A DNA stretch of 64,000 bases from Psammoneis japonica (lineage: Eukaryota): NCBI GenBank assembly GCA_008632985.1, contig QPGO01000032.1, forward strand, positions 493,330 to 557,329, read 5' to 3'. A program made the translations under genes and the position numbers. The notes beneath the pieces are model-generated. The model saw only the letters and a program-made list of their open reading frames with translations. It made no database searches and was not told the DNA's origin. Positions 31,401-38,984 of this stretch are shown here, in pieces (within the stretch, counting starts at the first letter, position 1; every line of letters begins with the position of its first letter).

Positions 31401-33255
31401 AATGAAACAATTGCTCCACACCCCGAGACAGATCGATGTATGTGCAATCTCTGTGGGACAAAACCGGTCGTAAATCCATGCAAGCGAACAACAAGATCAG
31501 AAGCTGGAAACCGTGACGACGAGGAAACCGCAGCGGCGACAACCGTTGAACCCACATGTGGTGTTGTGGAAATTGCGATGGCTCCCGAGGTGGTGGTTGA
31601 ACCTGTGTGTGTGGATGACACTCCATTGCTCAATGCGGCTCATGTTCAAGTCGAGAAGCAGTTCAACATGCTGCAGGCCATGAGAAGCACCCTGTCACAG
31701 CAGCTTGCTTTTGCATCAAGCATGAGTGCAGCCCTCCCATCTGTTCCATGTCAAGTGCAACCAGCTCTTTCAATTCTTAATGATCCGATGCGGGATCAAA
31801 GGAAGCAGGACATTGACCCGCACTGTTGTCCTGTCTTCCTGCAATGCAAGCTGCAGCAAAGCTACAGTGTGGCGGGGTGCCGACCAAGAGGTCGACCCGC
31901 ACATTCTAAGGATTGCCCAAAGAGACAGCAGTCAAGGAGGCAGATGTTATCATCGACGGGTGTGTTTTGTGCATCACTGCTGACATTGACGTTCTCGTGA
32001 GACAGCTGCTAGAAGCGATCTAGCCTGAGACGCACAGCATTGTTTTCGAAACAGAGCTGAGTTTCCATGAGTTTTGAATTCACTTTTTTTTTCTCATCTG
32101 CCACACTTCTGTGCTTGGTTGTTGTGTCCTCCACATGCTTCATCACAATGCCACACCCAACCACCACCTTTCAAGGGCAGGTGAACCCTGTCGCACCAGA
32201 GATTCGGGTCTGCGGCGGTTGAAGGCACTCCCGTCCTTGGAAGCACCAGTCAACGCCTCACCGGGGAGCCACCCCTTGGCTCTCGTTGGCCGTCTCAATG
32301 TTCAGAGGTGGGGCCACATGAACATTGTTGCAGAAAAAAATTGCCGAGGCGCTGCTGCAGTCAGCAACCTCGGCAGTGGCCCGTGTCATTTGCAGACGAG
32401 GGCCACCTCGTCTGCCGCTCACACACGGACTTTTCCAAAAGTGGTAGATTGTAGATTGCCAACCGACACAAACCGCAACCATGACCAACACATGGCTGTC
32501 AATCCCTTCAAATCGAGTTTCAACAGCGCCTGCGGCAACGCCCCTTGCAGCACCATTTCCAACAATCCTGAAACACCGCTCCAATGGCCAGCTAACGCTC
32601 ATTGACGACGGGTGAAGATTGGGCTGGAGCCACAATGGTTTCAATGCAAACCATAGAAAGAGGGATGCCAAAATTCTCCAAGCTTTAAGGAGGGCTCTTC
32701 AATCTGTCAAGAACGAACAGAAATTGCAACACAAGAGGTGAGTGACGAGTTCTACAAATGGAAAAAGTGCCAAGGCATTTCTCATCCATTTTTTGCGTTT
32801 TTCACACCTTTCTTTTCACATGTTCATTTGTCATAGAGAATTGCAATGCGTGCTTTGTTGGCACAGCAGCAGCACAAGTGACGGCGGCAATGTCGACTGC
32901 CGGCTCTTGTGGCTGTCATGGTCGATTTTTTTGTGTTGTGTCGGAGGGAAACGACTGACACGACGTAGATTTCTACGCAGAAATCACACCATGAGCACTT
33001 CAACACCACAATGTCCGTGTCAGTGCCTCGCACGAATTTACTTCAACATGCGAGTCACCCGGAGATCTGACACATCGGGTTGCGAAAATGGAGAAAGAAT
33101 TGTGAGAATTGCTCTCAAAACCACTTCCACATTATAGATCAAGCTCGCTGCACTCGCAACCCCTTCCTCTCTCCCTTTCTTTCTCCCCTCTTCCTCCTTC
33201 TTTCTCCTCTCCCCTCCCCCCCTCTCTTGGAGTCACTGACCCCCCCAAAACCCTT
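28487..33255 (+). mobile_element. Putative DNA transposon, tandem copy 1 (about 4.8 kb)
   Basis: Near-identical to 33259 onward. Starts CGAGGGAGG, ends with a pyrimidine tract + CCCCAAAACCCTT. CAT at each junction. Confidence 0.8.
28748..32000 (+). pseudogene. Putative DDE-type transposase, copy 1 (frameshift near 29340, TGA near 29394, stop TAG->CAG readthrough at 31941)
   Basis: Homologous to ORF 33519-36716 along its length. Confidence 0.7.
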
Positions 33256-33258
33256 CAT

Positions 33259-36200: not shown

Positions 36201-38984
36201 ACAGATCAATGCATGTGCAATCTCTGTGGGACAAAACCGGTCGTAAATCCATGCAAGCGAACAACAAGATCAGAAGCTGGAAACCGTGACGACGAGGAAA
36301 CCGCAGCGGCGACAACCGTTGAACCCACATGTGGTGTTGTGGAAATTGCGATGGCTCCCGAGGTGGTGGTTGAACCTGTGTGTGTGGATGACACTCCATT
36401 GCTTGATGCGGCTCATGTTCAAGTCGAGAAGCAGTTCAACATGCTGCAGGCCATGAGAAGCACCCTGTCACAGCAGCTTGCTTTTGCATCGAGCATGAGT
36501 GCAGCCCTCCCATCTGTTCCATGTCAAGTGCAACCAGCTCTTTCAATTCTTAATGATCCGATGCGGGATCAAAGGAAGCAGGACATTGACCCGCACTGTT
36601 GTCCTGTCTTCCTGCAGTGCAAGCTGCAGCAAAGCTGCAGTGTGGCGGGGTGCCGACCAAGAGGTCGACCCGCACATTCCAAGGATTGCCCAAAGAGACA
36701 GCAGTCAAGGAGGTAGATGCTCATCATTGACAGGTGTGTTTTGTGCATTGCCACTGACATTGACGTTCTCGTGAGACAGCTGCTAGAAGCGATCTAGCCC
36801 AGAGATGCACAGTGTTGTTTTCGAAACAGAGCTGAGTTTCCATGAGTTGTGTGAATTCACTTTTTTGTTTCTCATCTGCCACACTTCTGTGGCCATTGGT
36901 TGTTGTGTCCTCCACATGCTTCATCACAATGCCACACCCAACCACCACCTTTCAAGGGCAGGTGAACCCTGTCGCACCAGAGATTCGGGTCTGCGGCGGT
37001 TGAAGGCACTCCCGTCCTTGGAAGCGCCAGTCAACGCCTCACCGGGGAGCCACCCCTTGGCTCTCGTTGGCCGTCTCAATGTTCAGAGGTGGGGCCACAT
37101 GAACATTGTTGCAGAAAAAAATTGCCGAGGCGCTGCTGCAGTCAGCAACCTCGGCAGTGGCCCGTGTCATTTGTGGACGAGGGCCACCTCGTCTGCCGCT
37201 CACACACGGACTTTTCCAAAAGTGGTAGATTGTAGATTGCCAACCGACACAAACCGCAACCATGACCAACACATGGCTGTCAATCCCTTCAAATCGAGTT
37301 TCAACAGCGCCTGCGGCAACGCCCCTCGCAGCACCATTTCCAACAATCCTGAAACACCGCTCCAATGGCCAGCTAACGCTCATTGACGACGGGTGAAGAT
37401 TAGACTGGAGCCACAATGGCTTCAATGCAAACCATAGAAAGAGGGATGCCAAAATGCTCCAAGCTTTAAGGAGGGCTCTTCAATCTGTCAAGAACGAACA
37501 GAAATTGCAACACAAGAGGTGAGTGACGAGTTCTACAAATGGAAAAAGTGCCAAGGCATTTCTCATCCATTTTTTGCGTTTTTCACACCTTTCTTTTCAC
37601 ATGTTCATTTGTCATAGAGAATTGTAATTCTAAGGATTGCCCAAAGAGACAGCAGTCAAGGAGGTAGATGTTATCATTAACAGGCACATTTTATGCACTG
37701 CTGCTGACATTGACGTTCTCGTGAGACAGCTGCTAGAAGCGATCTAGCCTAGAGACGCACAGTGTTGTTTTCGAAACAGAGCTGAGTTTCCATGAGTTGT
37801 GTGAATTCACTTTTTTATTTCTTATCTACCACACTTCTATAACTATTGGTTGTTGTGTCCTCCACATACTTCATCACAACACCACACCCAACCACCACCT
37901 TTCAAGGGCAGGTGAACCCTGTCGCACCAGAGATTCGGGTCTGCGGCGGTTGAAGGCACTCCCGTCCTTGGAAGCACCAGTCAACGCCTCACCGGGGAGC
38001 CACCCCTTGGCTCTCGTTGGCCGTCTCAATGTTCAGAGGTGGGGCCACATGAACATCATTGCAGAAAAAAATTACCGAGGCGCTGCTGCAGTCAGCAACC
38101 TCGGCAGTAGCCCGTGTTATTTATAGACGAGGGCCACCTCGTCTGCCGCTTATACACGGACTTTTCCAAAAGTGGTAGATTGTAGATGCCAACCGACACA
38201 AACCGCAACCATGACCAACACATGGCTGTCAATCCCTTCAAATCGAGTTTCAATAGCGCCTGCGGCAACGCCCCTCGCAGCACCATTTCCAACAATCCTG
38301 AAACACCGCTCCAATGGCTAGCTAACGCTCATTGACGACGGGTGAAGATTAGACTGGAGCCACAATGGTTTCAATACAAACCATAGAAAGAGGGATGCCA
38401 AAATACTCTAAGCTTTAAGGAGGGCTCTTCAATCTGTCAAGAACGAACAGAAATTGCAACACAAGAGGTGAGTGACGAGTTCTACAAATGGAAAAAGTGC
38501 CAAGGCATTTCTCATCCATTTTTTGCGTTTTTCATACCTTTCTTTTCACACATTCATTTATCATAGAGAATTGTAATGCGTGCTTTGTTGGTACAGCAGC
38601 AGCACAAGTGACGGCGGCAATGTCGACTGCCGGCTCTTGTGGCTGTCATGGTCGATTTTTTTGTGTTGTGTCGGAGGGAAACGACTGACACGACGTAGAT
38701 TTCTACGTAGAAATCATACCATGAGTACTTCAACACCACAATGTCCGTGTCAGTGCCTCGCACGAATTTACTTCAACATGCGAGTCACCCGGAGATCTGA
38801 CACATCGGGTTGCGAAAATGGAGAAAGAATTGTGAGAATTGCTCTCAAAACCACTTCCACATTATAGATCAAGCTCGCTGCACTCGCAACCCCTTCCTCT
38901 CTCCCTTTCTTTCTCCCCTCTTCCTCCTTCTTTCTCCTCTCCCTCCCCCCCTCTCTTGGAGTCACTAACCCCCCCAAAACCCAT
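33259..38984 (+). mobile_element. Putative DNA transposon, tandem copy 2, with an internal duplication of about 950 bp (36676-37627 repeated at 37627-38578)
   Basis: Direct repeat of copy 1. Duplication junction TTGTAAT|TCTAAGG at about 37627. Confidence 0.8.
33519..36716 (+). pseudogene. Putative DDE-type transposase (DUF6729-like, Mutator-type xxxH motif), open 1065-aa frame but hypermutated
   Basis: Motifs SDHTF, CNEKGQV, SDTWP, LGLFHWMHRI, SKLEKAH and Cys clusters. Only one Tyr in 1065 aa. Family assignment is from motif memory only. Confidence 0.6.

Follow-up and report, generated by a model that had tools for sequence, protein, structure and literature searches.

The window analysed here, a stretch of 64,000 nucleotides from Psammoneis japonica (contig QPGO01000032.1 of assembly GCA_008632985.1, positions 493,330 to 557,329 of the forward strand), contains a 12.5-kb DNA transposon (26499-39028 in window coordinates) whose internal tandem array has progressively lost the dinucleotide TpA (TA) to TpG (TG) or CpA (CA). 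The array consists of two long units, termed U1 and U2, and a partial outermost unit, U3', and a segment of ~950 bp is present in each of them (copies c1, c2 and c3, respectively). TA is the ancestral state on five independent lines of evidence, and the process is apparently the recently described kind of TpA hypermutation, here in a second, distant lineage. The outermost copy has been converted far less than the two inner ones, and the best reading of this contrast, held to be somewhat probable, is a position effect, with conversion weaker at the margin of a domain.

The alignment of c1, c2 and c3 comprises 951 columns, in which 32 dinucleotide sites vary solely among TA, CA and TG. Positions converted to the same product in all copies escape detection in such a comparison, and all fractions given here refer to visible sites only. 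Read in the order c1, c2, c3, the patterns are TG,TG,TA (10 sites), CA,CA,TA (8), TG,TG,CA (5), CA,TG,TG (2), CA,TG,TA (1) and TG,CA,TG (1); TA is lost in c1 only at three sites, in c2 only at two and in c3 only at none, and nine sites retain TA in all three copies. An earlier note on this DNA had described three copies caught at different stages of the mutation, with the outermost least converted and the bases outside TA sites almost identical. The strings that it quoted are all present where it had placed them, and c3 is indeed far less converted (38 TA versus 11 in c1 and 12 in c2), but the stages number two rather than three, as c1 and c2 are alike. Identity outside TA sites holds roughly, not exactly, since 23 other columns of the 951 are variable, about half of them indels and a few of them CpG-type.

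When the segment is taken together with the tail that follows it in U1 and in U3', 51 sites are visible, and TA is kept at 43 of them in U3' and at 16 in c1 and its tail, which corresponds to losses of 8/51 versus 35/51. U3' keeps TA at 27 sites where c1 has lost it, with no site showing the reverse, and a sign test on this 27:0 asymmetry gave p below 1e-7 (p=3e-8, computed with n=26). At the sites where c3 keeps TA and both inner copies have lost it, c1 and c2 carry the same product in 18 of 19 cases. The chance that two independent conversions agree in product was estimated at ~0.6 from the context bias described below, and with 0.625 as the value used this concordance has p=0.0016. Because of it, most conversions of c1 and c2 are taken as shared by descent, inherited from one common ancestor. 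A product choice fixed by the sequence context was considered as another reason for the agreement, but the bias is only partial (21/27 and 17/27) and shared descent was kept. U1 and U2 separated, or were homogenised, after the conversions of that ancestor and were then converted independently, as is shown by 18 sites that read CA in one of them and TG in the other; the split of U3' is earlier than their separation.

That TA came first and was progressively lost, as the earlier note had it, is borne out by paralogs, proteins, reads and base composition alike. Sites that read CA in one paralog and TG in the other number 18 between U1 and U2, 7 between c1 with its tail and U3', 5 between the long terminal repeats (LTRs) of a copia-type element and 18 between V1 and V2, a second tandem pair of the window. 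Such sites point to an ancestral TA, from which each lineage needs one change; otherwise two adjacent changes would be required. The 1065-aa open frame of U2 has one relative in a word-indexed search, protein P0001, with 36% identity. Where 31 Tyr residues of P0001 are aligned, the frame reads His 10 times, Cys 10 times, Tyr once and other residues 10 times, and its overall Tyr content is 0.1% versus 3.0% in P0001. In a family alignment of 49 members, 117 columns are conserved at 80% or more; the frame keeps 88 of these 117, but none of the seven Tyr columns, which read C, Q, C, H, S, C and H, and the same residues are found in U1 at these seven positions.

The read data consist of Logan contigs from the one read set that contains the stretch, run X1, which is possibly the assembly's own sample. 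Inside U3' these contigs report only two substitutions, C>T at 38057 and C>T at 38551, and both restore TA, at two of the five TG,TG,CA sites where an ancestral TA had been inferred. The observed-to-expected ratio (o/e) of TA is 0.17 in U1, 0.12 in U2 and 0.52 in U3', versus 0.8 and 0.7 in two metagenome loci encoding P0001, and the GC content is 0.51 in both U1 and U2 versus 0.44 in the metagenome relatives.

U1 and U2 are 97.5% identical over 4374 columns in the self-comparison. TA was lost in one of them only at 24 sites, and 18 sites read CA in one and TG in the other; a further 24 changes are CpG-type, 10 are other transitions and 5 are transversions, and 16 columns are indels. The two LTRs of the copia-type element (14485-14760 and 21309-21584) differ at 22 of 276 positions, including 3 one-sided TA losses, 5 CA-versus-TG sites, 6 CpG-type changes, 2 other transitions and 1 transversion. 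In both spectra the excess of A-to-G and T-to-C changes is confined to TpA, as in the hypermutation of the chlorarachniophyte Bigelowiella natans. Between U1 and U2, 60 visible TA-loss events on 66 visible TA sites (two lineages) stand against 15 non-CpG substitutions on ~4,377 columns, so that by our own arithmetic TA changes ~260 times faster per site than non-CpG positions, a comparative estimate and a lower bound, as parallel identical conversions are undetectable. The polarised products show no clear strand bias, with 31 CA and 23 TG among 54 events.

The process prefers certain flanking bases. Relative to 1131 TA in normal DNA, the 184 residual TA of the depleted blocks are enriched in TTAA (3.3-fold), CTAA/TTAG (3.1-fold) and CTAG (2.1-fold), and they are depleted in ATAT (0.08-fold), ATAC/GTAT (0.21-fold) and GTAC (0.30-fold). 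R-TA-Y is the hot context and Y-TA-R the cold one. A 5' purine led to the CA product in 21 of 27 events and a 5' pyrimidine to the TG product in 17 of 27. According to the genetic code, a change from TA to TG or CA cannot make an in-frame stop and removes TAA and TAG, which is why a frame of 1065 aa is still open in a clearly ruined protein. Tyr accounts for 0-0.7% of residues in ORFs (open reading frames) inside the depleted blocks versus 1.0-4.2% in host ORFs.

Conversion also depends on the place within the array. Along the chromosome, the converted fraction of U3' runs 6/17 (37627-37899), 1/10, 1/14 and 0/10 (tail), versus 13/17, 8/10, 9/14 and 5/10 in the same bins of c1 and its tail, and the first bin of U3' differs from the rest (Fisher p=0.012). 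At the left end of the array, within the first ~150 bp, U1 keeps TA at 28546, 28594 and 28627, all lost in U2, with no case of the reverse (p=0.049). In the third depleted block, TA is kept at 41147 and 41225 by the outer V1 and lost at both places by the inner V2. Both outer parts of the TIR (terminal inverted repeat) element are spared, the 2-kb 5' part being unconverted and U3' little converted. With distance counted from the upstream ORF's stop codon, ~75% of the sites are converted at 0-950 bp (c1 and c2), 50% and 35% at ~950-1350 bp (inner tail and start of c3), 7-10% beyond that and 0% in the last tail, and on the 5' side there is a sharp limit ~120 bp upstream of the first ATG. These distances would agree equally well with a domain linked to the gene or to a silencing unit and with a distance to the border. 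The earlier note had placed the weakening near the border with genic DNA: conversion does fade toward the array end, from 6/17 to 0/10, but the border in question lies inside the TIR element, as host DNA on the right begins only at 39029 and on the left the array is preceded by 2 kb of the element's own unconverted DNA.

Three blocks of the window are nearly TA-free (7501-26000, ~28630-37600 and 41501-48500). Their TA o/e is 0.0-0.26 in nearly every 500-bp window, with 0.32 at 26001-26500, and CA and TG mostly reach o/e values of 1.2-2.3; between the blocks, TA o/e lies at 0.31-0.94. The same note had made its reading depend on an edge gradient at other repeat blocks, and within the window the outcome is mixed: TA density changes abruptly, within 200-300 bp, at the edges near 7200-7400, 28500-28700 and 48400-48600, and gradually, over 0.4-1.4 kb, at 41000-41400 and 25000-26400. 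The second of these graded edges, a stretch of 1.4 kb located between the first block and the left TIR at 26499, has an intermediate TA density (0-4 per 100 bp).

The array is located inside the 12.5-kb TIR-bounded element, because the TIRs flank it and read contigs of other copies diverge near the right TIR (Table 1). With up to 3 mismatches allowed, the TIR has only two matches in the window, and 100 shuffles gave an expectation of 0. The TIRs belong to this larger element; for the 4.8-kb unit itself, no terminal repeats were found among the 25 longest inverted pairs. A target-site duplication flanking the element was looked for and not seen. No ORF of 165 aa or more falls entirely inside the unconverted 5' part, and the ORF of U1 is broken into 28748-29356 and 29595-32000. 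At the junction 37626/37627, non-homologous positions (the equivalents of 32850 and 31903) are joined via a 2-bp AT overlap. As U3' continues directly into the element's own right end, it would be the rightmost unit of the array and no late arrival. One read contig of run X1 joins 28463-28478 directly to 38985, so that in this sample the TIR element also exists, as another copy or allele, without the 10.5-kb array. Together, the array-less form and the tandem repeat would fit an unequal exchange between two short motifs that resemble each other (28483-28491 and 38984-38992).

Table 1. Parts of the TIR-bounded element and its tandem array (window coordinates).
Feature	Position	Strand	Remarks
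Left TIR, 26 bp	26499-26524	+	Perfect inverted match to 39003-39028
5' part of element, unconverted	26525-28483	.	TA o/e 0.71-0.94 per 500 bp; 5-13 TA per 100 bp up to 28483
Unit U1, 4772 bp	28484-33255	+	From self-BLAST and ORF list; TA o/e 0.17
Copy c1 of ~950-bp segment	31903-32850	+	11 TA
Unit U2	33256-37626	+	Cut at equivalent of 32850; TA o/e 0.12, GC 0.51
1065-aa open frame in U2, predicted decayed DDE transposase relative	33519-36716	+	From ORF list, homology and fold match
Copy c2	36677-37626	+	12 TA
Partial unit U3'	37627-38991	+	Starts at equivalent of 31903; 95.7% identical to U1; TA o/e 0.52
Copy c3, first part of U3'	37627-38578	+	38 TA
U3' tail	38579-38991	+	0/10 visible TA sites converted versus 5/10 in inner tail 32851-33255
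Right TIR	39003-39028	-	Read contigs of other copies diverge at 39023 and 39027

The following course of events is proposed. A silenced DNA transposon bounded by the 26-bp inverted repeats would have had its inner 4.8-kb transposase unit tandemly duplicated and then rearranged into U1, U2 and U3'. The mutation process would act in place and turn TpA into TpG or CpA, i.e. A-to-G on either strand, for which the simplest agent would be a DNA adenine deaminase needing a 5' T. The affected region, possibly a silencing or chromatin domain, would start sharply near 28630, ~120 bp upstream of the first ATG of the ORF, cover the gene bodies together with the inner c and tail segments, and fade at its right end over ~1-1.4 kb. 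The c1/c2 lineage, which would have lain inside it, lost TA at about three quarters of its visible sites, for the most part before the separation of U1 and U2, and U3', which would lie at the margin, lost 8 of 51; it is position in the domain, not history, that would have made the difference.

Several points weigh against this explanation. Small numbers underlie the positional trend, the tests at the left edge and at the V edge comprising 3 and 2 sites, respectively, and the block edges elsewhere in the window are not uniform. The contrast of c1/c2 with c3 is effectively one of a single lineage against a single lineage. The earlier note had seen the gradient as consistent with a chromatin or methylation link, which would be one possible cause; a difference in 5-methylcytosine between the copies finds no support in their CpG counts (37, 36 and 36 in c1, c2 and c3). 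Read contigs identical to c3 (94-152 nt) have a depth of 154-293 versus 45 for one flank contig; contig depth is no copy number, but other c3-like copies probably exist and could donate sequence by gene conversion. No listed contig was shown to bridge 37626/37627. The host, finally, seems diatom-like and not B. natans by the sequences of two genes only.

History instead of position, the most serious alternative although an unlikely one, would mean that U3' was renewed from a less-mutated family copy, by gene conversion or a second insertion, and has been exposed for a shorter time. A donor tract would then have to stop exactly at the junction, as U3' continues into the element's right end and TIR; within U3', conversions become more frequent toward the converted side, a trend not expected under renewal, and the left end of U1 is likewise spared without any junction. 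In favour of renewal, the conversion level does change abruptly where the rearrangement joined the units (TA density 1 per 100 bp at 37500, 7 at 37600), the c3-identical contigs are deep compared with the flank, and TA-richer divergent family members were seen as loose ends at 38066 and 38104.

Targeting by homology length, in the manner of RIP (repeat-induced point mutation), is improbable. Here the 4.4-kb homology of U1 and U2 would trigger the mutator, and the short third copy (0.95-1.37 kb) and the unique 5' part would be poorly recognised. The converted domain (~28630-37900) nearly coincides with the tandemly duplicated DNA (28484-38991) and the 2-kb 5' part of the element, locally unique, has been left alone, as this idea predicts; yet c3, 95% identical to c1 and c2 and adjoining them, shows the 27:0 asymmetry, and the copia element and other blocks of the window were converted without local duplication. 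The hypermutated giant-virus region in B. natans is also single copy, according to the preprint (10.64898/2026.01.13.699255).

Still less probable is an assembly artefact, by which c3 would be another haplotype or locus wrongly joined to the array. The element is multi-copy in the read set, a flank contig has 5 differences from the window in 600 nt, an array-less form exists and a contig across the junction was not shown, all of which would suit such an error. However, the junction joins non-homologous positions via a 2-bp overlap, a join that assemblers do not make without reads, and among the 117 placed contigs no loose end or joint was reported at 37626/37627, a bin that is covered. The reverse direction, in which c3 gained TA by RIP-like C-to-T changes at CpA and TpG, is hardly credible and was rejected, for although the 18 TG,TG,TA and CA,CA,TA sites alone fit either direction, the TA o/e of U3' is ordinary (0.52, within the 0.31-0.91 of unconverted DNA) and that of U1 and U2 is not (0.12-0.17), CA-versus-TG swaps are abundant, His or Cys has taken the place of Tyr when the frame is compared with 49 family members, and contigs restore TA where no window copy has it.

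The product of the array can be tentatively placed. The wider P0001 family (proteins P0124-P0273) counts 1089 representatives at E<=0.001, with proteins of ~1000 aa. D488, D550 and E744 are invariant in the 49 family sequences and belong to an RNase-H-like core, accompanied by several Cys clusters. An AlphaFold model (predicted local distance difference test, pLDDT, 79.4) matched best to the fold of the ISCth4 transposase of the IS256 family (E=5.4e-5, probability 1.0), followed by retroviral integrase cores and Hermes. Profile searches gave less: the 1065-aa frame had no Pfam match, P0001 scored E=0.19 and 12.6 bits against Pfam MULE, below the gathering cut-off of 27.6, none of 40 relatives matched Pfam MULE at E<=0.01, DUF6729 gave sub-threshold matches in 3 of the 40, and the family profile found no match among PDB sequences at E<=1. 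The TIR core had no match in the two metagenome loci of P0001. The array is predicted to encode a decayed relative of IS256/MULE-like DDE transposases, and the P0001 family looks like an undescribed eukaryotic transposase family. The invariant DDE residues in an RNase-H-like core, the ISCth4 fold match and the perfect 26-bp TIRs are shared with IS256/MULE transposons; the Pfam MULE score far below threshold and the lack of a visible target-site duplication, which measures 8-11 bp in MULE/IS256, are differences.

The other blocks of the window carry the same scar. The copia-type LTR retrotransposon is nested in the first block (14485-21584) and was recognised by an RVT_2 match (E=1.7e-22). The tandem pair of the third block (41129-47397) consists of V1 (41801-44295) and V2 (44846-47397), which are 89% identical, share a short matching head at 41129-41271 and 44296-44438, and have almost no TA left; besides the CA-versus-TG sites, 22 CpG-type changes and 110 ordinary substitutions distinguish them. 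Inside this third block, positions 47804-48102 are 299 consecutive N, and the structure of the block is thus incomplete. The strongest TA depletion, at 10001-14500 and 41501-47000, is accompanied by strong CpG depletion (CG o/e 0.04-0.34), whereas CG o/e is not strongly depleted in the younger array (0.44-0.98) or the copia element (0.73-0.94); CpG decay, itself a source of TG and CA, seems either to come after TA loss or to be a mark of older or methylated blocks. On both strands at 15576-21361 there are many long stop-to-stop frames that overlap (up to 778 aa), as expected where TAA and TAG have been erased, and they are no evidence of genes. A 674-aa open frame (23265-25289, minus strand) inside the first hypermutated block matched Peptidase_M64 with 31.2 bits (Pfam cut-off 26) and contains 0.7% Tyr; it may be a captured or transferred gene ruined by the same TA-erasing process.

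The host was placed by two genes. The GAPDH of the window (54900-56069, minus strand) is 76-82% identical to nine named diatom GAPDHs, compared with a range of 73-91% between diatoms, and no hit closer than the named diatoms was found in the collection including MMETSP, which presumably covers B. natans. For a DUF1295 ORF, the four Atlas clusters closest to it are found most often in Bacillariophyta. An importin fragment was of no help in the placement, with 2 uninformative homologue hits and no useful taxon in the Atlas. At 39382-39544, flank contigs of runs X1 and X2 disagree with the window and with one another, at 4-5 places in 250-600 nt, an indication of alleles or strains within the sample.

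Only one report of natural TpA-to-TpG/CpA DNA hypermutation was found in the literature, the 2026 chlorarachniophyte preprint of Mettrop et al. (bioRxiv 10.64898/2026.01.13.699255). In its available text, 230 of 231 mutations in two integrated viral regions of B. natans mutation-accumulation lines are A-to-G or T-to-C, all of them on TpA; the TpA rate is raised roughly 1000-fold and the process is active only in some lines; 124 TpA-depleted, CpA+TpG-enriched clusters are counted genome-wide, with cut-offs of 0.43 for TpA and 1.52 for CpA+TpG; and an ADAT2 homologue is proposed as the candidate enzyme (10.64898/2026.01.13.699255). The three blocks of the window show the same signature, i.e. strong TpA depletion and CpA+TpG enrichment between normal flanks. 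Compared with that text, the likenesses are changes from TpA to TpG and CpA only, GC enrichment, normal flanking DNA and targets of mobile or viral origin, here a copia RVT_2 element with LTRs and the TIR transposase array. The differences are that the targets here are transposons and tandem arrays, that the evidence is comparative instead of coming from mutation-accumulation lines, and that the host is diatom-like by two genes and not a chlorarachniophyte. Neither 'boundar' nor 'gradient' occurs in the main text of the preprint, and its Results and Discussion, as available, contain no paralog polarity test, no flanking preference beyond TpA and no CpG co-depletion.

Fungal RIP in ascomycetes is also a block-wise transition hypermutation of mobile or repeated DNA at one dinucleotide, leaving a compositional scar and falling off at the target ends. 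In contrast, RIP makes TpA from CpA, enriches AT and creates stops, and the process here destroys TpA and leaves frames open. Instead of the TpA excess and CpA+TpG deficit that mark RIP, the mutated copies have a TA o/e of 0.12-0.17 and CA/TG o/e of 1.4-1.6, and long similar duplicates are not all mutated, since c3, 95% identical and adjacent, lost 8 of 51 visible sites versus 35 of 51.

ADAR hyper-editing and the ADAT2/TadA deaminases resemble the process in converting A to G next to a 5' U or T. ADAT/TadA enzymes act on A34 of tRNA, which follows a near-universal U33, and this habit would give TpA specificity. Those enzymes act on RNA, whereas here adjacent DNA copies diverged in place and on both strands about equally. 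ADAR2 prefers a 3' G, unlike the 3' pyrimidine preference found here (RTAY hot, YTAR cold). RNA-level ADAR editing fixed via reverse transcription was considered and rejected, as products appear on both strands (31 and 23) and Tyr was changed to His and to Cys 10 times each; the route through an RNA copy is further ruled out by copies that diverged in place in a DDE-type element.

Taken jointly, these results raise the possibility, put forward tentatively and as less than probable, that a TpA-specific DNA-editing defence, described until now only from the rhizarian alga B. natans, also works in a diatom-like stramenopile and acts on a bounded domain instead of on sequence identity. That domain would start sharply ~120 bp upstream of the transposase start codon and fade 1-2 kb past the stop codon. 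As neither the transposon's own termini nor the adjacent copy of 95% identity has been touched, the target would be a silencing domain or a transcription unit. The R-TA-Y preference and the need for a 5' T would fit an ADAT/TadA-like adenine deaminase. Proteins would be disabled by Tyr erasure and never by new stops, unlike in RIP.

For genome annotation, the TA-depleted blocks call for caution, as they hold long stop-poor frames on both strands with Cys/His-rich, pseudo 'zinc-finger' looks that should not be annotated as genes. The paralog series adds the long-term end state of the process, in which nearly all TA is gone, Tyr is erased and frames are open, and also gives the flanking-base preference, neither of which mutation-accumulation counts can give. 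It further indicates that the target is a domain with edges and not every copy of a repeated sequence, which constrains the possible mechanisms, chromatin or transcription-unit targeting versus homology or small-RNA targeting. If the same scar is indeed carried by transposons of a diatom-like host, the process would be either widespread or convergent, and it would reach a group with good genetic tools.

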